63,845 nucleotides of DNA, filler included, from Rhizaria sp. SCN 62-66 (GCA_001724265.1; 3 parts of 3 records of this genome joined end to end with filler, not necessarily neighbours in it); one strand, 5' to 3'; shown: positions 11,885 to 51,396, numbered from the whole stretch's first letter. Notes: generated by a model from the letters alone, not told the origin. Numbers and translations are program-made.

Positions 11885-14411
11885 TTACGGGTGTTGTTGC
11901 TGTTGCTTGTTGCGGTTCGCCGCTGCCTTGCCGAGTGTCATCAGCGCGTCCTTCTCCGCGTCTGCGACCTGGAGTGCATTGCGCTCGATGATGGCTTCGG
12001 TGGAGCTCTTGGGGACCACGCGCACGCGCACGCGGCCCGAATTCTGCCGCGACAGCGCCGCCCCAGGCCCCGCAGACTGCTGCTACTGATGCTGTTGATG
12101 CTGATGCTGCTGTACACTGGGTTGCTGCTTCAGCGGCGGGGCGACGACGGTGGGTGGGGGCCGGGCCGGAACCATCCTGTCGTCAGAGCAGGCGTTGTTT
12201 TCGTTCGCCTCGTCTTCCTCGTCGTCGCCATTGTTCTCGTCGTTATCGTCGTCGCCGTTGCGCAGACTGCTGCTGCTGTTGCTGCCGTGGCCGCTGCTTT
12301 CAACGACCGGCGACGGCAGCCCCGGGAGCCCCGCGGCCCCACCCGTCTCCGGCGTCAGCGGCGGCGGCGACGGCTGCAGCCCCCATCGGGTCGCGACGAG
12401 CCCCACCGCGCCCATCTGGCCTGCGACCGCGGCGGCGACGACCTCGGTGCGTTCGGCGTCGCGCGCCTCTGCGGCCTCGCGCGCGTCGGCGGCCGCGGCG
12501 GCCAGCACCGCGGCCGAGCGCGCGACTGTGAGCCGCCGCCCGCTGCCCATGACGGCGACGGAGCCGGAGCCGGAGCCACCGTGGCCGGGGCTGGTAACGG
12601 CCTCGGTGATGCATAGAGGGCTGCCGCTGAGGATAACCGCCTCGCCGCCGCCGCCGAGGGACGCGGGGGCGGCAGCGGTGTTGGCCGCGGGCAGCGCGAC
12701 CAGGCTGAGGGGGCTGCCGGCCGCGGCGAGTGTGTTCAGAGCGAGGGGACTGCTCAGACCGTAGCCAGCGCTGTTGACAACACTCGCAACGTTGCCGCCA
12801 GCGCCAACAGTGCCGGCCCCAACAGCGGTCGCGTTCGCGCGCTTTTCGTTGTCGTTGTTGCTGTTGTAATCGCAGTTAAGCATGATGTGCTAATTCCGGC
12901 GCGCGCGCTTGGCCCGTGCGTTGTCCCAGGCCGCCTTGGCCGCGGCGGCGGCGCGCGCGTTCTCCTCCTGCTCCAACAGCTGCATGTTGGTGTTGAACGC
13001 CTCCATGACAAAGCCCATAAAGACGGGCATGAAGATGAGGTAGATGAGCGAGCGGAACGCTGTGATGAAGGCCTCGCCGACCCACCCGCGCACCACGGTC
13101 GCGGGCCCAATGAGCATCGTCCACCAGTTGGCCATAGCGATGATCGACCCGGTCAGAATGGCCTGCGGCAAGGACTCAAAGGACATGACGCCGCGATGCG
13201 GCAGCCACTCGCCGCAGCAGCGCGCGTCGTCGAGCGCGGCCACGCGCGTGGGGTCGAGCTGTGGCCCGCCCAGCAAGTCAACTGCGATGAGCGCGAAGGC
13301 GAAGATCAAGAACAGGAAAACCAGCGCGACGCCGGCGAGCGCGGGAAAGACGCGGCCCACGGTCTTGAAGAAGCGCGTGGCGCCCGTGGTCAGCGACAGC
13401 ATGCGCAGCACGCGGACTGAACGCGCGGCCAGGATGAGGTGCATCTGCGACAGCAGCGAGGGCGCAGCGTGCGCCAGAACGCCGCCGGTGACCGAGACGA
13501 ACGTGACGATGAAGTCGATGCGGTTCATGCCGCGCGCCCAGAAGCGCTTGAGCCCGAGCGCCCAGAGCTTCACGGCAACTTCAACAAGGAAGAGCCCACG
13601 CAGGGCTAGCGACACGGCGCCCCAGGGCGTGCGCTCGTAGGCGAAGGGATCAAACGGCGGCAGACCTGCGGCGACGCGGGCGCGCGTGAACATCGCGTAG
13701 TCGTACAGCTGCGCACACAACAAAAGCAGGAACGGAAACAGCACCACGTCCGACAGGCGCACGCTCGTTGCCGCGTCAGTGACGGCCGCAGCGGCGACCG
13801 CGGCGGCCTGGGCGTCGGCGCTGAGCGAGGACGACACGTCGAGCCCGTCCAGCAGTGCGCCGGCGCGGCTGGCGCGCGCGCGGCAGCGGCAGCGCAGGAG
13901 GTCGCTGGGTTGCACGCGCAGCTGCAGCCAGCGGCGCACGGCGCGGCGTGTGCGCGCGCGGCCGCGAGGGCCGCCGCAGCAGGTGCCGCAGCAAGTGCGC
14001 GACTGCTGCCGCTGACGACGACTCGCGGTGCCGTCCCTGTCGGGGTTCACGGCGCCGCTATCGTTGTTGGCGTTCAGTGGCTGCGTGAGCGGGTTTTCGC
14101 CGTTTGCGCCGCCGCCAGCGGCGCCGGGAACGGGTGACATCGGAGAGGCGTACATGAGGGACGCGAGTCCGCTGCCGCCGCCGCCGCTTGTCATGACGGC
14201 GAGCTCGTACGTCGCGGCAGCGGCGGCCGCGGCGTCGGCGTCGTCAGCGTCGTTGTCAGCAAGCACACGCTCCTCGGCGTCCACCCACGACACGCTGGAG
14301 TCAACGCCGCCGCCGTCGCCCTGATCACCGCCGCGGCGGCGACCGTCGCCGGCGCCGCCGTCCTCGGGATCGAGGTCGTGGCCTGCGCCGTCGTAGTCGC
14401 CGTCAAAGCCA

Positions 14412-18491: not shown

Positions 18492-19754
18492 GGCAAAAAT
18501 ATCCGTGGCTAAAATATCCGTAGTTGACATGGTGGTGGAAATTGATTTTGTAATACAATTGGATTGATACATATATATTTATTGATGAAATCTGTGAAAA
18601 TAAATGAATATGTGAACTATATATTTGATTATCAATTCTCGGCCTTAAAAAAACTCGATTAGCACGTGGAAGTCTTTACTTACTGTTTTCTGCCTGCTTA
18701 GCATTGGCTTTATCAATTGCCGCTGACACCAGCTGCAAGTGCGTGTGAAGCGACAGACTGTACTCGTTGTCGGGCATAACCTCCCGAGTGTCAGAGTTGT
18801 AAGCAATGTAGCCATAGGCGCTGGGCACGTTCACCGGGAGATCTTCAATTGTGATAAACGACGTGCAGACGTAGGAGCCAAACGTGTTGATGCATATTGA
18901 TTGTAAACCATAAAGCGCCGCACAATTAATTGTTGAAAACATCCTCCCCTGCAGCTGCCTTAGCAATAAACTTCTGGCTGTGCCGATAGAAGTTGACAAA
19001 ATGTCCTTTTTGAGCTCCTCGGTGATGAAGCACAGCGCCGCAGCGCCCTCTAATAGAAAAGGCGGGTTTTAAGACTTTTTTTTTACAACCCGCCTTTTCT
19101 ATTACTGCTTATACGGTGGGAGGTACTTCCACTGAATATTATTTTGCTTTATCACCATGGTCACCTCTCGTACGAGGGCCGTCTTGTGAAAAGCAACGTT
19201 GTCCACCCAAGAAGGCTCGTGACGCAAGCCACTTATCTATTAATACAAGCTAAACGCCATCAAATTTGTGTAGATCGCATGCTCATAACGCCGTGACCTT
19301 AGAAGACAGCGTGCAAGGATCACTCACAACAAAGAGAGGCTTGAGTAATCTGCCCTTGCTGGACGTGCTGTCTGTTACTGAGGGCCGTATGCGCTCCCCA
19401 GAGAACAACATGGCAGCCATCTCGCGCGTAAACGAGCTCATAAGCCACTCTAGCGCCCACTGGCTCCCTGCTGCAGAACATGCTTCTGCAGCTGCTCCGT
19501 CGCACCCAACAGTGCCTCTCCCACCTGTGTAGGCAAGGCAGAAAACAGTAAAGAGTATTAATACCACATGGTAATCGGGTTTTTATAGGCCGAGAATTGA
19601 TAATTAAATATATAATTCACATATTCATGTAGTCTAACAAATTTCATCAATAAATATAAACGTATCAATCCAATTGTATGACAAAATCAATTTCCACAGC
19701 AAATTTGTTTGGTCAACTACGGATATTTTAGCTGTGGCTACTTATATTTTTGCC
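18492..19754. mobile_element. Non-autonomous long-TIR element (Mutator/foldback-like), ~1.26 kb
   Basis: Imperfect ~200-bp AT-rich inverted repeats at 18492-18695 and 19536-19754. They include an exact 21-bp match (GCTAAAATATCCGTAGTTGAC, 18508-18528 vs 19712-19732), and both termini begin GGCAAAAATAT. No transposase and no clear TSD. Confidence 0.75.
19051..19104. repeat. 54-bp hairpin (perfect 18-bp inverted repeat)
   Basis: TAATAGAAAAGGCGGGTT (19051-19068) pairs with AACCCGCCTTTTCTATTA (19087-19104). It extends to 22 bp with one mismatch around a T-rich loop. Confidence 0.85.
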
Positions 19755-19886
19755 CGCAGTTAGTATTGATCGATGTCGCAGACTGGAACTGCTGTTTGTT
19801 ACCGCCGACATTTAGCATAAAATACCAAGTCTCATAGGCTCACACTGGGGCAAACACCACCCACGGTCGTTTCGGTGTGGGTATAA

Positions 19887-20095
19887 AAAGGTGGCGTTCT
19901 CCTGTGAACATAGACTTCTGTTTTGTACATGTATATTAATAAACACAGAGAAAACAATTTATGATATCATTTTGTACACATTTACATACATATAATTCGA
20001 ATTATATACTTGGTTCTTATTGTTTTCATAGAAAAGAGAGTCTGTGTTCTGTTCACAGGAAAACGAAGTGTGTATACACAAGAAACGCCACCTTT
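19887..20095. mobile_element. MITE-like inverted-repeat element (~210 bp)
   Basis: AAAGGTGGCGTT (19887-19898) pairs with AACGCCACCTTT (20084-20095), and imperfect pairing continues inward. An 18-bp perfect palindrome ATATAATTCGAATTATAT (19990-20007) lies near the centre. Confidence 0.55.
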
Positions 20096-21118
20096 AAATC
20101 GCGACCGGCAAAAGCTGTCGACTGGAATTTTATGCAGAATGTCGACGGCGACGGTAACACTGTTGAATAGCTGTTCTAGCTATGAGATTGTGTCGACAAC
20201 AAACAAGATGAACAAGAATGAATAAAATAACAGTGTAGCAATAAATCACAAAGAGGTTAGGATTAGAAGAACTCTAACAAGGCGAAGACCTAGCTGACCA
20301 GGTCTCTTTAGATACAGTACACTTCTTCTTCGTTTTACGAGACGAAGCAGCACGTCTTCTTCTTCGCCACCCCTCATCTCTCCTGGATTTGTGAAGTGCC
20401 ACGACGCGAACATGCCATTTATGAGCTCCGTTTTTACATAGCATGCTGTAAACGTCATTTTCTTTCTAATATCATGCGTCTAGCTTGCGCACACGTATTA
20501 TTGGGTTGGTCCTGCATCTGAAAGTTTGCTCTCCCTCGAGTAATCTTCCCTTCTGCTTCAAAAGCTGTTGCCTTACTTCCCTTACGTGCGTCATTGTGAC
20601 GCGAAGAGAGAGCGTTGAAACGATGCTTGAAAACGGCATGATGTGTGTCAGATTCCCTCGATGTGGCTATATTCTGATATCTACAACCTTTATTGTGTAG
20701 CATCATGCGCAAAACCCGCTCACGCACCTCTCCTGACATTGCCTTGCCAAGTATTTCAACGACAACAAACGACAACAGCTGACGACAAGGAAGGTAACCA
20801 CCGCCTACCGCCTGCAATTGTTCTATTTGTATAGTATTGGCACACAGGCACGTGCCCTTATCTCCGCAACTGTTGGAAATACTCCGACTGCGTTTAGCTC
20901 GTCCCTGCTCGCCTCACGCGCTCCATAGCTGTCGAGCTGCTGCATCGCACAGCGTCACAGCTCGGCAATGCCTGCGATTTCCGTTCCCTCATTGTTCTTT
21001 TTGGGGGGTGTTGAAGCCAATGGAGCCTGCACCGCAGCTTCAGGGACAGCAGTAACGCCGGCTCGTTCTTGCTCGCCATCGTCTTGTCGTAATCTCAACT
21101 TCAATAGTAACAGAACAG

Positions 21119-24100
21119 GAACACAAGCGCTCTTGCGCTTCCCGCATCTCTTGCTCTTCTCCTCCTGTTCTTGGCAGCCTTTTGCACCGCTCTGCATACG
21201 TTCTCGATCGGCAGCGACCGCTCCGCCTCGACTGTGCCATTCCGCGTCGTCCTCAGCTCGCTCGACTCCGGTGATACTGCGCTGGAGCTACAGCAGCTCT
21301 CGTCGGACAAGCTCAACGTCCTTTTTATCAAAGGCTCGCTCACTAACTGTCGCATTGAGATGTAGACGCTGCTGGTGACGATCGTTGGCGTCACCACGAG
21401 TGCTGAAGCTGATATCTTGACTGTGCGCTCGTTAGTGACGCTGAACATCGCGACCATCCCGCTTTCGTGCCGCGTCACGCTGCACCCCGCGCTGGCGCCA
21501 ACCACGTTCACGGCGGTTATGAACACGTCTTTCAGTGGAACCGCGCTCGCTACGGACACGGTGACGTTCATGGTCACCGCCCCGCACTTCATGAACACGC
21601 CCTACAACAGTAAGGTATTTTACGAGAACCAGTGGCTTGGCAAGAGCGAGAACTTCATCCTCCCGTTCCGCTACTCCGGCGACATAAAGCTCACCGCATC
21701 CGTGCTCGGCGCCGCTGATTTTGTCTTGACGCTCAGTTCCACAGCCCCGGTCATGTTCAACAGCAGCAACGTGTAGTGCTTTCTCGACTACCGGCCGCTG
21801 CTCAACAACGTTCTCATGCTCAGCTTGTCCAGCATCGCGAGCGGCGGGCTAATGGTGTTCATGAACATCCCCACGAACGCAATCACCGTCCGCATTCCCG
21901 ACGCGTACACCGGCATCCTCACCTGCAAGGCGCCGTGGCGCTCGCTGACCGAGACCGTCGTGGTCGCGAGCACACTCTTCACAATCACCCCGGGACTTAG
22001 GTTCGGCGCGTCCCAGATCTCCGGCCCGTCGTGCACGCTCGACACCGTAGCGTCATCCACCAGCGACGGCTGGCTCGTCACGTCTACCAATGGCGCGCAG
22101 ACGTGGGCCGCCACCGACTACGGGTTGCGAGGCACCGCCGTGGGCAACATTGACCTGGGCATCGTCCGCGGCAACAGCACGGAGACGTACCGCGGCTCCC
22201 CGCGCTCCTTCTGCACCGTCAGCGCGCGGCCCGCCGCCGCCGCGAGCTCCCCCGTTGCCAACGGCGGCGGCGTGGCCGCGGCGCTGGTGCAGCCCGTGGA
22301 TCCGCTGACTATTCTCTCGACTGGGTATTGCCGCATCCCTTTCGCGAGCCTGCGCATCTACGGCGCCAGCGACGTTCTGTCCTCGGGGGTTGTGCTTGTG
22401 GTATCGATGTACGTCGCCGACGCGCCAACGGAGCTGACCACCATCAGCACGCTCGGCTTTGTCAACGGATGGATCTCAAGGACAATTACGATCTCACAGG
22501 TAGGTGTACTCACGAGTGCGCGATGAAAGTGGCGTTTTGTTTTTAGCTCTGTGTGCCGCTATATAATGCTTTTATGACAGTATTTTTATGCTTGATCATA
22601 TATATTCTATGTCGATATATTTTTTCTTAATCACATCTCACGCTATCGTTCTCGTTTACACGATTTCATGTTTTTTAGGCGTTCACGATGACAGCCATGA
22701 ATTTCTCCCCGACCGTGGCGTCCATCTCGTCCTTTACGCCCCGCGGCATGTACCAGCCGCACCGCGCCTCGTCGCCCTTTCTTCTGTCGCAGAACATCAA
22801 CTTCACGGTCCCGCTGCAGGACTGGTACTCGCTGCGCCCCCAGCTGCCGCTGTCCGTCTCGTCCGCGCGCCCGGCCCCGCGCCCGCGCCCGCGCTACCTG
22901 CAGGCTACGGCTGCCGCCGCCGCGGCGGGGCCCCGTCAGTCGGCCACGTCATCCTCGCTCTCGGGCCAGTACTCGTTCTTCTTCGGCGGCATCGCGCTGC
23001 AAACGTACCCGCTCGCGTCGCCCACCGCGGACCCTTTTGTGGAGCCCGCGCTGCTGTCGGACCTGTGGATGGTCGACGTGCTGGCCAACACCACGACGTT
23101 GCTGCACGGCGACCCCGCGCTGGTGAGGCTGCCCGCCGGGCTCGGTGCCACGGGCTCGCCGACCGTGGGCGTGTACGCATCGACGCTGCGGCCCGCCGCG
23201 CGGCACTCGGCCTCGCTGGCGTACGACCCCACGACGCGCATCCTGTGGCTCTTCGGCGGCGCATACTACCCCATAATCGCCGGCAACGCCGATAAACAGG
23301 CGTTCTTTGATGACATGTGGTCGTTCAGCCTTGACCGCCGGCAGTGGGCGTGGTGGTCTGGATCCACGGAAGCCAAGACCAGGCCCGTCACGAACTTCAC
23401 TATCACGACCAACCCCTCACCCACGGCTGGCGCGGCCATCGCGGCGTACGGGGGACAAATTGTGATTTATGGCGGTACGTTATAGGAATCGCAAACCAGA
23501 ACAACTACAACGATAATATTGTCCTTCGACAAACTTAGGTCTGACTACTCTCGCTGCGACTTTTTTGTGATGTCCTATTTCGCATTTCTTGACTAACTAT
23601 CGTCGGTTTGAACTGGATCAATATCTCTCACAAACTCCCTTCATTGTAGGCTACGCACTCGCGTCAACTGCCATCACCACCGGATACAACCCCGTCGTTG
23701 AGACGGACTTTGTCTTTTTGGCCGTGGTTGCCGGCGCCACCGTTATGTCGTGGCAGCGCCTGGCGGGCGCTATCTCGGTTATCGACAACACGATTCCGTC
23801 CCGCGGCGGCCCCGATGTGCCGGCCGCCCGCGCCTACGCATCGCTGGTCTGGGAGACGCACAACAACGCGGGGGCCGGCTCATCTCTGCTCATGTACGGC
23901 GGCTCGGTCAACGCGCTGCCGCTCACTCTGCCGCCGGGGACTGTGACCGTGAACACGACTCTGCGAACGGCGCCGGGGACGGAGAACGACTCGGGCGTTC
24001 TGGCGGGGCTCTGGCAGTTCTCACTCACCTTGACCCGGTGGACGCGGCTCGACGCCGCGTTCCCCGCCCCGACCGCGGGCGACCGTGGGCAGCCGCGGCT

Positions 24101-27100
24101 CACGCCCGCAGCTGAGTCGGGCATACCGCACCCGGGCGGCCGCGTGTTCCACGCCATGAACATCGCGGCCAACGGCGATGTGTACCTCTACGGCGGCCGC
24201 GGACACGCCGTCGGCGCGTACGTGCGCCCCATCGTCCAGCCGGCCCTGCTCTTAAGCGAGCTCCCGGCCCCCGCGCCGTTCACGCTGCCGCTTAAGGGCC
24301 GGTTCAGCACCACAGTAAACGAAAACGACGCAGTGTCGCTGCACGCGTTTCTTTACACCAAGGCGGAGATGGAGGCCGCGGGCCTGCCCGCCGACGTGCC
24401 GCTGTCATCGCTCGACGTCATGGTGAAGCTCAGCACCGACTCCGTCTTCGCTGAAACGGGCGTCTGGGACTCCACCAGTCGGTTCCGCGTCCGCTCGCTG
24501 CTCACGTCGACGTCGTTGACTGACTTTACAGACACCACGGCGAGCTTTCTCGACACGTACGAGTCGTCTCTGCTCGCGCAGCCCGTTGTCTCGATCGACC
24601 CCACGGCGTGGGCCCCGGGCACTTTCATGGCGATCAACTCCCCGTACATGAAGGACTCGTTCCCCGACTCGGCGACCGTCACGCAGGCGCTCTCGAGCTC
24701 CAACTACATCATCCTGATCTTCGCCGTCGAGTACAAGCTCTCCGGCACCGGCAACACGTCACAGCTTGCCCGCTTTGGGCTCGAGACGACGGATACTATC
24801 TTCGAGCGCGCGCTCTCGTTGCTCAAAAACGCCGGGTCCGCGACCGGACTCGCGACGCGCAACTACGTGCGCTCCACCATGCGGCCCGTGCTGCTGTTCC
24901 GCTCCCCGCTGCCCGCGCATCCGCTGACGCAGCCGCCCGTGTCGCTGTCGCCTTTTGTCGCGCCGCAGCTCGACGACCTGTGGCAGTTCTCCCGCACCAC
25001 GAGCACGTGGACGCTGCTGCGCGGCTTCGTGGCGCCCAACTCGCGCACGAGCTCCACAAGTGACCGCATAGTCCTGCCCGGGACGGCGACGACGTTCTGG
25101 CCCGGCGCGCGGCTGGGCGCGTCGCTGTCAATCCCCTCAACGAGCACGCTGAGCGCGCCCGTGACCAGCGACGCGTCGCTCTTCCTCCGCGGCGGCTGGA
25201 CCGCGGGCTCGACCCCCACGGCGGAGAGGCTGTTTTTCGTCAGCCCGGCCGTGGAGCGGCACATGGAGGACTGCGAGCAGCTCACGGTGCACGACGACCT
25301 CTGGACGGTGGACATCACGGCGGGCACGTGCATCGACAGCACGGCGCCTGGGCAGGACATACTCCCGTGCCACCTGCCCACGGACAACAACAACACCGCG
25401 CGCCTCACGCCGTGGCTGCCCCAGAGCCACATCGTCTACGGCGAGCATGCCCGTGAGTCCCTGTCGCTGGCTAGCGGCAATACCTGCCCTTCGGGGTTTG
25501 CCGCCACTTACTGTAACAGCATGGGCAGCTGCGTCCCCGGTGGCGGTTCCGCGTTTTGCCACTGCAACGACTACACGCAGGGGCCCTCGTGCGCCACTGC
25601 CAGCACGACCGAGATCAAGGCCAAGCTCCAGCTCAGCTTCGGCTCCGCGCTGCTGCCGGCCGCCGCGACCCCGACCGTGCTGCCCTTCGCCGCCGTCGCG
25701 CACCGGCCCGGCACCGGCGAGGTCTACAGCTTTGGCGGCGTCGTCGTCGACGCGGCCGGCAAGGCCTCCGCCAGCGCGGCCTTCACGCGCGTCGACTTGG
25801 TTGCCAACACGGTGATCGAGGTCCCGCGCACGACGGGCTTCGCCGTGTCGCACGACTACTCGCAGGCGCTAATCCCCACTTTCGACATCGGGTTGCCGTA
25901 CGCTGGGACGACGGCGCCGCCGCCGACGGTCGAGTCGCACGCGTGGTTTTCGCCCGACGGGCTGTTTATGTATCTCTACGCCGAGAGCTTCGTGGCGCCG
26001 CCCGGTCTGTGGGTCTACACAGTCCCGTCAAAGGTACGCATTTTGTGCAAAGATTCCTCTATTTTCTCACCTCGATTTAGCTTATTTAATTATGATGTCG
26101 ATTTTCGTCGAATAGTTCCCTTTTTTCAGCTTCTTACAACAACAAAAAATCAAACGTGTGTTTTGTATCATATCTTTCTCTTTCCACGTGTATAACGACA
26201 GTCTTGGACGACGGCGGGGTATAATCATATGAGCCACAACGCGTCGTACCCGTGGGGCACGGGGTCGTACAACTACAACGCGGGCGCCAACGGTGTCCCC
26301 GGTGTGAACTACCACCCCGGCGCGCGCCAGGGCTTTGCGAGGGCGTCGTACTCGTCGGAGGCCTCTGCCGACAACGCCTCGATGTTCTGCATGTACTCGG
26401 GAACGCAGACATATGAGTCGGGTAACCACGGAGACACGTACAACACGGATCTGTGGTGCCTCTTTACCAAGACTAACTCCATGAGTGGAGTCCATGATGC
26501 GCAGTACGTTGCGGCATTTACTCAAAAGTTGAAATGTTCATAACTGTCTTCTTGCACACGTCACCGCTCTCACTTTTCCTCATCCCCATTTTTGCTCACG
26601 TGTTTCTTCCCTTCATTGTTTTTGTTTGAACCTTGTTGTTCTTGTAGGTGGGCGCGCATGGCGGGTAGCTCCAACCAGACTCCCATCGATTACTTGCCCG
26701 TCGCCAGCGAGTCTGGCACGTTCGCCGCCACCAACAACCCCGGTCCACGCCTCGGTGCCAGCATGACGTTTTCCCGTGACGGTCGCTACCTCTATCTCTT
26801 CGGTGGATCTCTCCTTGGCCGCCCTAAGGTCAATGGTGGCAAGATCCCGACCCCGGCTCTTATGGCCGACCTCTGGGTGTTTTCCTTTGCGCTGAACCAG
26901 TGGGCGTACCTCTCCGGCCCGCTCACCTGGGCCGTGCAGGGCAGTCCGCACGCGCGCAGCACCGTCGCCACCGTTGGCGCGTTCTCGCGGCTCCAGGCGC
27001 CCGGCGCGCGCGCCTTCGCGAGCATGACGACCGACGCCGAAGGGCTGTTGTACGTCGGCTACGGGCTGCGGCTGCCGCTGACTGCAGGGACGTCCCTAAG

Positions 27101-30100
27101 CGACGGCGTGAGCGCGGATTTGGCCGACGCCTCGTGTCTCGAGGGCACGGTGTTTGCCGTGTATGCTGAGCAGCTGCACAACAGCTCCTGGACGCCGCCG
27201 GCGACGTCGGCCGCGACGGTGGCCACGGCTCCAGCCTCGCACAACGTCGGCAGCGAAATCCCCGCGTGGGCGCTGCTGGTGAACCCGGTCAACATCGCGG
27301 TGCCGCCGACGCTGACGTTCGTGTGGGCCGCGACCACGGACGACGCGCGGCTTGGCGCCGCGTTCCTCATGCTGCCAAGCACCATCGGCACCGCCAACGC
27401 GCTGTACGCGAACAAGGCCGCGGTCCTCCTGCGCTCGGGCGGCCTGACGTACGCCTCCGGGGCTGCGCTCGATGGCGGCTTGACGACCGCGTACCCGTTC
27501 TACCTGCACTCGAAGCTGCGCTCGGACGTCGACCAGTCCGCGCTCGTGGCGCTCACGTCGCCGTGCTCGCAGAACCCCTGCACCAACGGCGGCACGTGCA
27601 GCGTGTGCACGGTCGCGTCGTGTCTGGCGGAGTCTCCGACTTACTTCGTCGGTCTGAGTTCCAAGAACTACAAGTGCCACTGCCCGTCAGGCCGGTACGG
27701 TGAGCACTGCGAGTTCAGCCGCGCGACCTACGCGCCCACGACGGCGCCCGCGGTGCTCTCGCTGGCCTGCGGCACCAACAGCACGCCGCTCGACTCGCTC
27801 AACACCCCCTGCACGTGCGCGGCGGGCGCCACGGGCACACTCTGCTCCCCTATCAAGGCGCGCGTGCACGTCAACGTCACCGACGGCGCCCCGCGGCCCA
27901 GCGCCGCGCCGCGCTTCTACGCCGCGGCGACGACGGTGCGCAGTCTGCCCGCGACGAGCGCTGCCGCGCTGGGGCTGCCCGTGAGCTCGACCGTAACGTT
28001 CGTCGCCGGCGGCACGGACAGCGTGGACACGACGACGATGACGTCGGCCATCACGGCGCACTCGCTCACGGCGCGCACCAGCGTCGCCGTGGTGCTCGAC
28101 GTCGCCGTGAACCCCGGCACGCCCGTGCTGGAGACCAACGTGACCAAGGGCACGGTGGCCTACACGGGGCAGCACATGGGCGCCTCGCTGGTGTTTTTCC
28201 CGCAGGGCAACTGCCTTTTCTTGTTCGGTGGCATTGTCAGCAACGGTGAGAGCGGCCATGTCGTGAACGTACGTAAAAATTTCTCAATCTTATCTGAACA
28301 AGGAAAAATGAATCAATCTTCTTTGTCATCCGCTAATCTTTGCTCGGATTCTCCTCTTGTATTGACATCATATATTTTTCTCTTAGCGCGAGTACTTCGA
28401 GCGTCTGTGGCGCATCCCCGTCGCCGCAGATTCGCTCAAACTTCCCCCGGAGCTTCTGAGCGGCCGCAACACGGACGCGAAGCCCTCCCCGACGCTCTTC
28501 ACCGCCTCGGACCTGGTCGACGTTGGCAGCGTCGGCCACCAGCACCGCCGCGACGCCTCCGTCTACCCCATGGGCTACCCGGGCGCGCGCGCTTTCCACA
28601 ACTCAGTGCTCGTCACGCTCAGCAGCGGCACGGGCGCCGCGGAGCACTGGGTGTACACCTATGGCGGTTTGGTTCCTTCGGCGGCGGGCACGCAGGTGGC
28701 CTACCGCGGCGATCTCTGGCGATACCGCGCCGCGGCCACGGACAACGTCGTTTGGCAGTACGTTGGCTGCGCCACGGGCCTCGACTACTTCCCCAACACT
28801 ATGTACGCACGCAACCTCACCATCGATCTGGCGAGCTACTGCCCCGCGGCGCGCGCGCGCGCCTCGCTGGTGGCGGTGGGCGAGACGCTGCTGCTGAGCG
28901 GCGGCGTCGGCGTCCGCGGCGCGCTCGACGACGTGTGGAGCTTCAACCTCGTCGCCGAGACGTGGACCCTGATCGCGGGCAACAGCCTGAAGCTACCGCT
29001 GGACGCCTCCACCGCGGCGGTGCTGCCCGTGTTCACGGGGGCCATGCTGAGCCGCACGATGGGGTCGCGCTACGACCACAGCTGCGACGTGGCGCCCGGA
29101 GAAACTAAGGTGTACTGCTACGGCGGCATGACGGCGCGCGCCGTGTACGCCGACGTCTTCCGCAACGCCGTGCCCATCACGCTGTCGCGCGCGGCGCACT
29201 TTCCCAGCGTCAAGGACCCGGCCGTCGTGACGTATCCGTTCCGTGACGCCAAGGGCGACGGCGTGACGGCGAGCCGCGTGGGAAGCTTCGTGCCGCGCGC
29301 TCTGCTCGACCAGGCCGGCGTGCTGGTCGGGATGTCGGTGCGCAGCGTCACCTTCTTCCTCACGCGGCCCGTCGACGCGCGCGTGCGGGTCACGGCCAAA
29401 GTCACGGTGCAAAGCGTTGCGGATGATCCGACAGGCAAGCTGACTGACACGATCGTAGGCAGTAACGGGACGAAGACTCTCTCGTACGCTGACTTTGGCA
29501 ACACTGGCACTGAGTTCTCCGTGCCTCTGGACTCGGCTCTCCTGTTCCCGTCAGACAGCTATGGCCTCGTCATTGCGCTCGAGGTCACCGTGCTCAGCGG
29601 CGACGGCGCTGCTGGCTTTGGCAGCGGCGGGCAGGTCGAGGAGTCGCTCGCCTACGGCAGTTTCGTGACAACTGCCACCGCGAACGTCTTCACCCTCTTC
29701 TCAGGCGTCCGGACCAAGAACACTCACTTCACCACTACGGCCGAGGGCGTCGCGGACGTGTACGAGACGTACCTCGTGCCGCAGATGCGCCTGCTGCTCT
29801 CCCCGCCCGCCGGCGGGCTCACACACGGCCACGCCCCGTCGTCGGACCTCTTCGTCATCGAGACGGCCGTGGCCGCGCGCACCATCGCCGCGGTCTTCGC
29901 ACCCCCGCTCAAGGCCGCGCCCTCGGCCGCCGTGCTCACCGCGGCGCTGTCCAGCGCCGTCGTCAACGGCGGATACCGCAGCGACCCCGTCATCGAGGAA
30001 GCCGAACTCGGCTACGGCACCGTCTGGAGCGCCTTACCGGTGCCCGACACTGACCCTTCGACGCCGGCGCATTTCGGCACCCGCGCCGTCACGCTCCCCG

Positions 30101-31061
30101 CGCTCGCGTCGCACACCTTCGCGCTCATCGAGGACCCGGGCGCCGTGTACGCCATGCAGGGCATCCCCGCCTTTACGCTCTACGGCGGTCGGTGGGCGCT
30201 CGAGACGCCGTACGAAACGACCCAGACGTTGGCGGTGGACCAGCTCGCCGGGTCCGCGACCTTTTTGGCCACGCAGAGCGACCAGTCGGTTCCGAGTTCG
30301 AGGTACATTGCTGACATTAACACGGCTCTTTTATATGTTTCTTCAATTTATTGTTTAACTTTACACATTATTTCATTCGTGTATGCTCACTCTTGCTTGA
30401 CACGTGATTATCTATTTTGTATCGACCTGTAGCGCTTACGCCTTGCGTAACGTCTACGTCTTCCACGCAGGCCTCAGCCTGCCCCCATACGTTCCCCTCG
30501 CTGCTCCGAAGCTGCCGTACCCACAGCCAACCGCGCTACGCTTTACCGCGGCCATGAACGAGGTGCGGCTGACCTTCGACATGGCTACGCAGCAGCCGCG
30601 CAGCACGACGTCCGCGTCGACGGCCAACTGCGCCATCGTTTTCCCCCAAACTGCGCTGGGGCCGTTAGGTGACGCGCCGCTCTGCGCGTGGACGTCATCC
30701 ACAGGTATGCACACGATATCACATTTGCATCGAAGAAATGAAACTATGGCGTGAATGAACGTCTTGTTTGTCTCCTATATCGCACATTAATCTTACCCCC
30801 TTACCCTCGAACTTTTTTCGTGTTGATTCTTCCAAATCCACAGTCTTCAGCATGATTCTCGGCGCCTCGTTTACCGCGCGCGTCGGCACCTCTCTGTCGC
30901 TCCTCGGCGGCGTCATTCGCCGGGACACAACAGCGACTGGAGCGATGTACTTGCCCACCAGTACTGTCACCATTCTGGATCCTGATACCACACCCGTGAC
31001 CCCTGTCTCAGTCATCTCAGGGCCCTCTACGATTGGCCCATGTGACGCGCTGACGCTGTGG
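21119..31061 (+). CDS. Giant secreted/surface protein with kelch-type repeats, EGF-like domains and the start of a REJ/PKD-like region (>2900 aa, 3'-truncated by contig end; start codon unresolved, possibly ATG 21020)
   Basis: Exons ~21119-22499, 22679-23474, 23650-26033, 26202-26503, 26648-28268, 28387-30302, 30433-30704 and 30844->31061 all splice in phase. It has a hydrophobic leader (LALLLLFLAAFC), repeated PGAR/PAAR...L(W/Y)LFGG...DLW kelch units, EGF motifs (CSQNPCTNGGTC...CHCPSGRYGEHCE) and a terminal VISGPSTIGPCDALTL typical of REJ-domain starts. Two in-frame TAG occur in the first large exon (21363, 21774). Confidence 0.78.
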
Positions 31062-31161
31062 NNNNNNNNNNNNNNNNNNNNNNNNNNNNNNNNNNNNNNN
31101 NNNNNTTAATTAATTAANNNNNNNNNNNNNNNNNNNNNNNNNNNNNNNNNNNNNNNNNNNN
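31062..31161. other. Artificial contig linker
   Basis: 44 N + TTAATTAATTAA (stops in all six frames) + 44 N. Confidence 0.97.
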
Positions 31162-31374: not shown

Positions 31375-33475
31375 TCACTGAGGCGAGCTCACGTCCCCCT
31401 GCATCGACTGTTGCGGCTGCACCTGTGCTGCATGGTACTGCTGCTCCTGCGCCTGCGCCTGCGTCTGCGGTGTCACATAAGTCTGCTATGTGTACTGCGG
31501 TTGCGAGTACTGAGCGTACTGGTGCGGCTGAGGCTGCTGCGACTCTGACTGCGTCTGCGCGGGTGCGTAGGTCGCCATCTGCGGCTGCGGCTGCACTGAC
31601 TGTTGTTGTGAAGCGGCGGTGTACTGAGGCTGCGCGTACACATACTGTTGCTGCTGCACTGGAGCCGACGTCGTCTGCACCTGCTGCTGCTGCTGCTGCT
31701 GCTGCTGTGGCGCGTACTGTGCAGCCTGTTGTTGCTGCTGTTGTTGTTGTTGCTGTTGTTGTTGGATGTACTGGCTGTAGTAGAGCGCCTGCTGTTGCTG
31801 CTGCTGTTGCTGCTGTTGCTGTTGCAGCGCGCGCAACTGTTCCACGTAGCTGTTCTTCTGTGAGAGAAGCGTCGGCAAGTATGACGCGAGCGCGTCGCGT
31901 TGCCCCTGCGACAGCTGCGCCTGCGCGCGCTTCTCGGCCGAGCCCGCGGGGTCTGTAGCCGCAAGCGCGTCGGCCGCCAGACGCTGCTCCTCCTCCTGCT
32001 TGATCAGCAGCGTGAGCGCATCCTGGTACTCCTTGTACATCTTATCAGTCTCGGCGACCTTCTCCTCCAGCGCGCGCGTGGCGCCGGTGCTCGCAGACGG
32101 AGACGCCGCGGCGGCTGACTGCACTTGCGACTGGGACTGCGTCTGCGTCTGAGGCTGCTGCGCGTAGCTATACTGTTGCTGCTGTTGCTGTTGCGAGGGC
32201 TGCGTTTGGTGCACTGGCTGTGCGGGATGGAGGGCCTGCGAGCCGGGCTGCGACGCTGGCTGCGAGGCCGGCGCCGAGGTCGCATAGAGCCCCGGCGTGG
32301 CGGCCCCGTGCTGCTGCGAAGACGGGAACACGGCGGGCGACACCTGTGACGCGGGATGGCTATGGCTCTGCACGTACGACATCTGCGGCGGCTGCGACTG
32401 CGCGTGGTGGTACTGCTGCTGCGGCTGCTGCTGAGCATGTGTGGTCGACGTGGGCGCACTGTACACTGAGGAAGACGCACTTTGTACCTGCGCCTGAGCG
32501 TGCGCCTGCGCTTGAGCCTGCAGATGGTGTTGGTGCTGCGCAGCGTAGTACTGCTGGTACGCCAGCTGCTGCTGTTGCTGCTGTTGCTGCTGCAGTCGAA
32601 GCTGCGCTTGAGCGTCCATCTGCCCATACCCAGTCGCGACAGCGTCACCGTAACCCGCGTTGTTCACCGCGGGGTACGCAGCGGTGCTCGACGCGGAGTA
32701 CGCTGTGGTGCTCGCTGCGGAGTACGGCGCGGCGTTCGCCGCCGGGTACGCCGCGTAAACCGGCGCGACGGACGCGTATCCGCCCTGGTCTGCGCGGTAC
32801 ATCGTCCCAGGCGCCGCCGCGTAGGTCGCGTAGCCCGCGACGGGCGCGGCAGGCGCGTAACCGGGGTAGCCCTGGTAGCTGACCGCGGGGGAGGAGGTGG
32901 GCATTGGCACGGGCGCAGGCGCGGGCAGTGACGACGCCGAGACAGAGGCTGCGGGGAGCCGCGGCAAACCAGACCCAGCGCCGGCATTAGCATTCGCGCC
33001 AGAGCCAGAGCCAGAGATAGAGTTAGAGTTAGAGCTGGCGTTGGCGCCAGAGGAAGCAGTCGCGGCGGGCGAGGGTGCGATGAGCGAGCGCGCGATTTTA
33101 AGCCGCACGACAACGTCCCCGGCTGCAACAGACGCGCGTACGGCAGCGCGCGTCTCGTCGTTGTGCTGGCGGCACGTACCGCAGCGGTTTCCGCACAGCT
33201 TGCGCGTGGCCGTCGACGGGACGGCGCAGTAGGAGTCGAACAGCTTCGCCAGGAAGGCCGGCGACGGGGAGACGGCGAGCGGGCACTGTGTGAGGCAGTC
33301 CGCGGCCAGCAGCCCGGTGGGCGACGCGGCCCAGGGCGGGAGGCCGGGCGCGTACACCGTGCCGGGGGACTCGCCGGTGATGACCTCGGTGCCAGAGTCC
33401 TCGGTGTCGACGCACACGAAGCCGTTCTGCAGCGTGAGTGTGCACTGGACCGGGCCGTCGTGGCCTGAGGCGGCG

Positions 33476-51296: not shown

Positions 51297-51396
51297 NNNN
51301 NNNNNNNNNNNNNNNNNNNNNNNNNNNNNNNNNNNNNNNNTTAATTAATTAANNNNNNNNNNNNNNNNNNNNNNNNNNNNNNNNNNNNNNNNNNNN
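51297..51396. other. Artificial contig linker
   Basis: 44 N + TTAATTAATTAA + 44 N. Confidence 0.97.

Follow-up and report, generated by a model that had tools for sequence, protein, structure and literature searches.

Two TAG codons stand in frame in the first large exon of a giant kelch/EGF-type gene on a stretch of Rhizaria sp. SCN 62-66 DNA (GCA_001724265.1; the whole stretch analysed, 63,845 nucleotides, is called the window below), and the question that this locus raises is whether these codons end the protein or are translated. We propose that UAG is, fairly probably, a rare sense codon in this organism, most likely for glutamate (Glu), with UAA and UGA kept as stops. We regard as very likely the broader claim that UAG is translated, as whatever amino acid, at least sometimes.

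Stop usage, a CUA tRNA and eRF1

Stop usage in the genome (34.9 Mb in 714 contigs) was counted over about 0.99 Mb of loci, partly picked for gene families, in which gene ends and internal stops were called by a coding model. Among 84 gene-end-like stops, TAA accounts for 46, TGA for 35 and TAG for 3, a deficit (P 5e-6) against the 21% share of TAG among the stop triplets of non-coding DNA; moreover, one of the three is an internal codon of DDX46 in front of an intron. Inside coding sequence, a strict screen returned 25 stops, i.e. 24 TAG, one TAA and no TGA. In-frame UAG is found inside conserved, intact genes, i.e. those encoding eRF1, kinases, UBE2J, TOR, a Brr2-like protein, SUV3, USP5 and DDX46, and further examples from the window are listed in Table 1. 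TAGs at the edges of domain matches were taken as splice acceptors and left out of the counts, and two TAGs flagged in dynein matches were rejected as such. Family scans of the organism's own genome returned no mid-exon TAG in ABC (0/20 matches) or WD40 (0/149) proteins, and the SNF2, kinesin, DEAD and metallophosphoesterase matches inspected held edge, acceptor or intron TAGs only. The public proteins P0131 and P0212 are the halves of the SUV3-like gene (L278, contig C129), which a caller using the standard code had cut in two at its TAG; TAG-bearing genes are broken in this manner by standard gene callers.

One tRNA gene with a CUA anticodon was recovered among 19 pattern-search matches (C84:76008-76080, minus strand; L040:1489-1561, minus strand). 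It is single-copy, forms a full cloverleaf with a short variable loop (tRNA-Ser needs a long variable arm) and is labelled Pyl by ARAGORN. Within the recovered tRNA set, which is incomplete (63 of 506 candidates of the Rfam tRNA search were scored), its closest relative is the organism's own tRNA-Glu(CUC), with 42/72 identical positions (47/73 ungapped) as against 36 or fewer for the rest of the 35 other recovered sequences, and the two glutamine (Gln) tRNAs are the least alike (27/72 and 23/73). The gene therefore carries the mark of Glu ancestry and not that of Gln ancestry. Its acceptor and T stems resemble those of tRNA-Glu(CUC), its discriminator is G, not A, and it possesses U11-A24, U13-G22 and a 4-base variable loop, features that are among the Glu determinants of Escherichia coli (PMC9976931). 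We infer that it may be charged with Glu.

The one eRF1 found (L031, contig C63) ends at TAA and carries Ser at positions 32 and 57, where all 120 homologues have Thr and Gly respectively, and Lys at position 58, where 119 of the 120 have Thr; it also shows L124M and keeps L69. Thr32 bonds the G of UAG, and the eRF1 of Iotanema spirale is T32G (PMC5304391). Replacement of Thr32 by Ala lowers release at UAA and UAG alike (PMC3384315) and is lethal in yeast (PMC4381064). Because these published effects of T32A cover both codons and extend to lethality, a UAG-specific effect of T32S is our supposition. Codon 107 of the eRF1 gene is itself an in-frame TAG, in a column that holds Glu in 109, Asp in 10 and Val in 1 of the 120 homologues. 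The closest relative of this eRF1, the protein P0004 (84% identity), has T58K yet keeps T32 and G57, and the named matches are all 62-70% identical. A metagenome contig (L230) holds an eRF1 sequence with the TAG, 100% identical and unspliced; it may share reads with the present assembly and so may not be independent.

In the mechanism that we propose, the single-copy CUA tRNA, derived from tRNA-Glu, would decode UAG, and eRF1 would favour UAA and UGA, its contact with UAG being weakened by T32S in the GTS loop and by G57S and T58K beside NIKS. Recognition of UAG by eRF1 would be lost and the TAG-bearing mRNAs would be translated, and the two TAGs of exon 1, lying where the sequence is variable, would be substitutions that this secreted or surface protein of kelch/EGF type tolerates. 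The organism provides a natural eRF1 variant (T32S, G57S, T58K) in which UAG-specific loss can be assayed.

The kelch/EGF-type gene and its two TAG codons

The gene model comprises eight exons and seven GT-AG introns of 118-179 nt, and runs from 21111 through 2,966 codons to 31061, where it is cut by the contig end, with the two TAGs as its only stops (Table 1). The window is made up of three contigs; the linkers between them, at 31062-31161 and 51297-51396, are runs of N that have a stop core in all six frames. Once TAG is read through, 21111 to 22526 is open in one plus-strand frame with both TAGs inside, and exons 2-8, which sum to 7,509 nt, are stop-free. The first-pass annotation had described two TAGs joining three open reading frame fragments of a gene of more than 2900 aa, downstream of a signal-peptide-like leader and followed by seven intact exons of about 7.5 kb, and all of this was borne out, the hydrophobic leader being present in the paralogues as well. 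What that account lacked is that the leader has no in-frame ATG in the assembly as it stands. An extra A behind 21111, seen in run X1 (one contig, depth 2.8) and in run X2 (one contig, depth 7.5), would join the ATG at 20968 to the leader frame, and an X2 single-nucleotide polymorphism (SNP) at 21033 is synonymous in the frame of that ATG. As X1 has the window's alleles at the neighbouring SNPs, a consensus error at 21111 appears likelier than a strain frameshift, judging from this one low-depth contig. The 40 X2 variants listed of 153 include 22 coding SNPs, of which 15 are synonymous in the gene model. Upstream of the gene, at 19336-20641, X2 depth climbs to 200-300x, which suggests a repeated element.

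Table 1. Features of the window that bear on the reading of UAG (positions counted from the first letter of the window)
Feature	Position	Strand	Basis and remarks
Second in-frame TAG of two-pore-channel-like gene, in a Gln/His-rich tract	12083..12085	-	Coding model
In-frame TAG in C-terminal tail of two-pore-channel-like gene, which ends at TAA	12890..12892	-	Profile match, coding model
Probable start codon ATG	20968..20970	+	Frame test that allowed one unknown base: an extra base behind 21111 is required to reach the leader frame
One-base assembly gap or frameshift allele	21111..21112	+	Extra A in runs X1 and X2
Exon 1, TAGs read through; extracellular region specific to this family, cysteines conserved	21111..22499	+	Five paralogues, 24-48% identity
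Hydrophobic signal-peptide-like leader (predicted), common to paralogues	21129..21197	+	Sequence and paralogue alignment
In-frame TAG 1, CRIEM-TAG-TLLVTIV	21363..21365	+	Codon 85 counted from 21111; paralogue column P/V/T/S/V
In-frame TAG 2, SSNV-TAG-CFLDYRPLL	21774..21776	+	Codon 222, invariant Cys next; paralogue column H/A/Q/R/S
Exon 2, kelch repeats	22679..23474	+	Kelch family profile matches
Exon 3, kelch repeats and EGF-like Cys cluster	23650..26033	+	Kelch profiles; EGF-likeness from Cys spacing
Exon 4	26202..26503	+	Gene model
Exon 5, kelch and EGF-like segments	26648..28268	+	Kelch profile matches, gene model
Exon 6, kelch repeats	28387..30302	+	Kelch profile matches, gene model
Exon 7	30433..30704	+	Gene model; alternative acceptor 30471 breaks the frame
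Exon 8, open at contig end	30844..31061	+	Gene model
Late in-frame TAG of Sgf11-domain gene on another contig; the gene terminates at TGA	31486..31488	-	Profile match

Five paralogues align to exon 1 through both TAGs, leader included, the best of them with 27/54 identical positions before, 55/134 between and 124/238 after the TAGs. Exon 1 is therefore coding and its start does not lie downstream of 21776, so that the alternative start considered at the outset, the ATG at 21816, fails. The exon matched no Pfam family, and no public homologue of it was found among 8000 scored candidates of 254-811 aa. Exon 3 has matches on nine other contigs (33-60% identity), and the family consists of at least 9-10 giant kelch-type genes (L224-L228 and L282-L284; contigs C537, C157, C535, C400 and C181). 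In exon 1, four of the five paralogues have a single TAG and no other stop, and in two of the four it occupies a shared column. This amounts to a surplus of TAG in the exon (4 in 2,267 paralogue codons, P 3e-4 versus the genome rate); the ten exon 3 matches outside the window contain three TAGs. The paralogue alignment that had been suggested for finding the residue at the TAG positions could be made, but it does not name the residue, because both columns are variable (Table 1). The first-pass annotation had also held this gene to be the best evidence that TAG is efficiently translated. That TAG is translated finds support, though chiefly outside the gene, in stop usage, the CUA tRNA, eRF1 and the conserved genes elsewhere, and this gene is not the strongest evidence; efficient translation is not supported, TAG being the rarest codon and the tRNA single-copy.

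The residue at UAG and competing explanations

Sites under stronger constraint point to Glu. At the kinase hinge, a mid-exon TAG falls in a column with Glu in 32 and Asp in 6 of 41 paralogues, and Gln is outside the five commonest residues. The Brr2-like TAG aligns to Glu in human Brr2 and in another Brr2 chain, and the USP5-like TAG to Glu in one of the two matches that the search yielded. Pfam bits summed over nine sites are highest for Glu (571.6), followed by Gln (567.3), Lys (566.4), Asp (565.3), Ser (561.2), Tyr (553.6) and Leu (550.7), and Ala, Thr, His and Trp, tried on seven sites, also score below Glu there. Tyr and Leu, which had come up from low-complexity contexts, were ruled out by these sums and by the shape of the tRNA, and the features of a Leu code are absent (Leu lowest of seven, short variable loop, L69 kept).

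A number of observations weigh against Glu, or against UAG as a sense codon altogether. The margin of Glu over Gln in the Pfam sums is 4.3 bits, of which 2.4 come from one site. The SUV3 column holds Asp in 93, Glu in 8 and Gln in 5 of 147 sequences, the search query having had Glu there; the TAG columns are Asp in Ubc6, Ser in UBE2J2 and TOR, His in DDX46 and Gln in DDX5, and the closest eRF1 relative, P0004, has Val. The eight TAG columns of the kelch-type family hold Glu once and Gln twice, the TAG of a ubiquitin fusion stands for a CAG (Gln) of the organism's own ubiquitin, and several TAGs lie inside poly-Gln tracts. A flanking-residue model gives Glu -12.8 bits over 32 sites compared with +7.9 at real Glu sites. 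The CUA tRNA is only 58-64% identical to tRNA-Glu(CUC), and tRNA-Glu(UUC) was not found with three patterns in this genome, so that it could not be compared. The relaxed short-window screen, with 15/18 TAG, does not differ significantly from damage (P 0.09-0.16). Finally, the RNA run X1, which we also count on this side, has zero cover at 21295-21947 and no splice joint, and says nothing either way; run X3 contained almost nothing. Taken as a whole, the sites suggest to us that most TAGs were derived from neighbouring codons where substitutions are tolerated, and that an acidic residue is indicated by the few sites under constraint. GAA occurs 2,611 times among 236,537 codons, and the tRNA-Glu(UUC) gene may be missing from the assembly or bear an intron.

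The alternative that survives best, though we judge it rather unlikely, is an ambiguous intermediate, in which UAG remains partly a stop, the tRNA and eRF1 compete for it, full-length product is lost, TAG is confined to a few weakly expressed genes and the residue inserted is mixed (Glu with Gln, Lys or Tyr). TAG is indeed the rarest codon, at about 32 sites against 236,537 codons or roughly 1 in 7,000 (a rough figure, numerator and denominator having been filtered differently), i.e. roughly a sixth of the frequency of ATA, which is the least used of the standard codons; there is a single copy of the CUA tRNA versus eight matches for tRNA-Glu(CUC), and T32S is a mild change. Of 45 curated internal TAG sites, 18 are followed by C, the commonest next base, and only 10 by G, which is under-represented relative to 43% of codon starts (P 0.003) or 36% of the positions after GAG (P 0.04). 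Two gene-end-like TAGs are left without explanation, and the TAG sites fit no single residue's context, none meeting its own expectation in the flanking-residue model. Against such an intermediate stand the TAGs in essential genes (codon 107 of the only eRF1 found, TOR and Brr2), and the near-absence of TAG from gene ends fits a full loss of stop function. The eight dynein heavy-chain genes, with no TAG in 33,489 codons, do not prove a cost of UAG, as ATA occurs only 4 times and TTA only 10 times there.

A more specific version, which we consider unlikely, places the organism midway in a stop-to-Glu change, where tRNA-Glu(CUA) and a weakened eRF1 compete. In that case codon 107 of eRF1, being UAG, would provide negative feedback, more eRF1 causing more termination on its own message. 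This would resemble release factor 2 (RF2), which autoregulates in bacteria. The TAG surplus in exon 1 of the surface-protein family could in that event be a form of expression tuning.

That UAG encodes Gln, as it does in Iotanema and two phyllopharyngean ciliates, is quite unlikely. In its favour, Gln comes directly after Glu in the Pfam sums and is among the best-scoring residues of the context model, bacterial amber suppressors are often charged with Gln (PMC9976931), and the poly-Gln tracts and the CAG-to-TAG replacement in the ubiquitin fusion point the same way. However, CAG-to-TAG is a transition and would supply TAG to Gln tracts whatever the residue, the context score of Gln is +1.0 as against +21.6 at real Gln sites, the CUA tRNA resembles the Gln tRNAs least of all, and Gln is missing from the five commonest residues at the kinase hinge and from the eRF1 column (0/120).

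We find it very unlikely that the TAGs are true nonsense codons or assembly damage (G-to-T, C-to-T) and the gene a young pseudogene. The base missing at 21111 might suggest as much, the ubiquitin copies show other assembly indels, the relaxed screen is compatible with damage, and the second eRF1 record, L230, may come from the same reads. Nevertheless, random damage is expected to yield 66-70% TAG and the strict screen departs from this (P about 0.001), four of five paralogues have a TAG and no other stop in exon 1, and X2, which is SNP-rich and covers the TAG region about 7x, has no variant at either TAG among the 40 of 153 listed. Damage would also leave unexplained why TAG is so scarce at gene ends, as well as the CUA tRNA and the eRF1 changes.

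Unrecognised introns with the TAGs as acceptors, or a start downstream of 21776, are barely tenable: acceptor TAGs do mimic in-frame stops at domain-match edges (both dynein cases and several more), but the alignment with the paralogues extends across both TAGs and takes in the leader, the stretch is GC-rich and coding-like where the seven introns are AT-rich, an intron that keeps the frame and has the donor motif of this genome cannot be drawn across 21774, and the four candidate introns across 21363 are 53-58% GC and would remove paralogue-conserved sequence.

Known codes and the host lineage

A code with UAG as Glu, and UAA and UGA as stops, is probably a new nuclear variant. Reassignments of UAG alone have led to Leu (exLh, TARA ciliates), Gln (Iotanema, Hartmannula, Trochilia, Protocruzia) and Ser (Scotinosphaera) (PMC11687900), and Glu at UAG is recorded in these papers only alongside a change of UAA, in Oligohymenophorea sp. 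PL0344, peritrichs and Blastocrithidia (PMC11687900, PMC10553269). No code with UAG as Glu and UAA as stop was found in the open-access literature, to which the search was confined, leaving subscription papers outside its scope; the excerpts of PMC13746701 and PMC12930898 make no mention of UAG. Few codes treat UAG differently from UAA, and Glu would be added to the Leu, Gln and Ser outcomes in a non-ciliate for which both the tRNA gene and eRF1 are known. The scarcity of UAG means that an early or incomplete reassignment may be visible here, which makes the choice between ambiguous-intermediate and codon-capture models testable.

The nearest likeness in the residue is PL0344, where UAG is read as Glu by a tRNA(CUA) closest to tRNA-Glu; there, however, UAA encodes Lys and ten tRNA(CUA) genes are 69-93% identical to tRNA-Glu (PMC10553269), whereas the present organism has UAA as its commonest stop, one tRNA(CUA) at 58-64% identity and very rare TAG. 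Peritrichs and Blastocrithidia also place Glu at UAG (PMC11687900; PMC12153298), but with UAA reassigned as well, a codon that here contributes 1 of 25 internal stops and is the commonest terminator. Iotanema is alike in that UAG alone is reassigned, UAA is a stop and eRF1 is changed at T32 (PMC5304391). It differs in having T32G rather than T32S, G57S and T58K, in using UAG for Gln rather than, probably, Glu, and in the frequency of UAG, which makes up about 8% of the Gln codons there but some 0.3% of the Glu codons in the present organism; a tRNA gene was not known for Iotanema (PMC5304391). In the rhizarian exLh (Sainouroidea) and the TARA phyllopharyngean ciliates, UAG alone is reassigned, to Leu, and UAA is kept (PMC5304391; PMC11687900). 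The host here may, on a weak hint, be rhizarian like exLh, but the eRF1 of exLh has L69A where L69 is kept here, Leu is last of seven in the Pfam sums and the CUA tRNA has no long variable arm; the TARA ciliates differ in having UAG in 78-91% of genes (PMC11687900). Scotinosphaera, with UAG as Ser and UAA as stop (as cited in PMC11687900), shares the reassignment of UAG alone, while here Ser lies 10 bits below Glu and the tRNA is without the long variable arm of tRNA-Ser.

As to the host, the ubiquitin genes (L262, L265 and L266; contigs C3, C168 and C182) begin Met-Ser-Met-Gln and deviate from the usual sequence at several positions, and two copies on C3 have internal deletions. Rhizaria and Cercozoa have an insertion of 1-2 residues between polyubiquitin monomers (PMC12930898). 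No tandem polyubiquitin junction was recovered among these genes, and the Met-Ser-Met-Gln starts are a weak hint of a rhizarian. About 11 dynein heavy chains and a peroxin are also present. In the ubiquitin fusion (L263, contig C681), whose TAG replaces a CAG, the ubiquitin domain is joined to a tail that we take to be phage chaperone-like, in AT-richer DNA. A very divergent, AT-rich small-subunit (SSU) rDNA extends over 4.4 kb (L034, contig C706) and may belong to another organism; its four long insertions resemble group I introns, and the first of them may hold an endonuclease reading frame.
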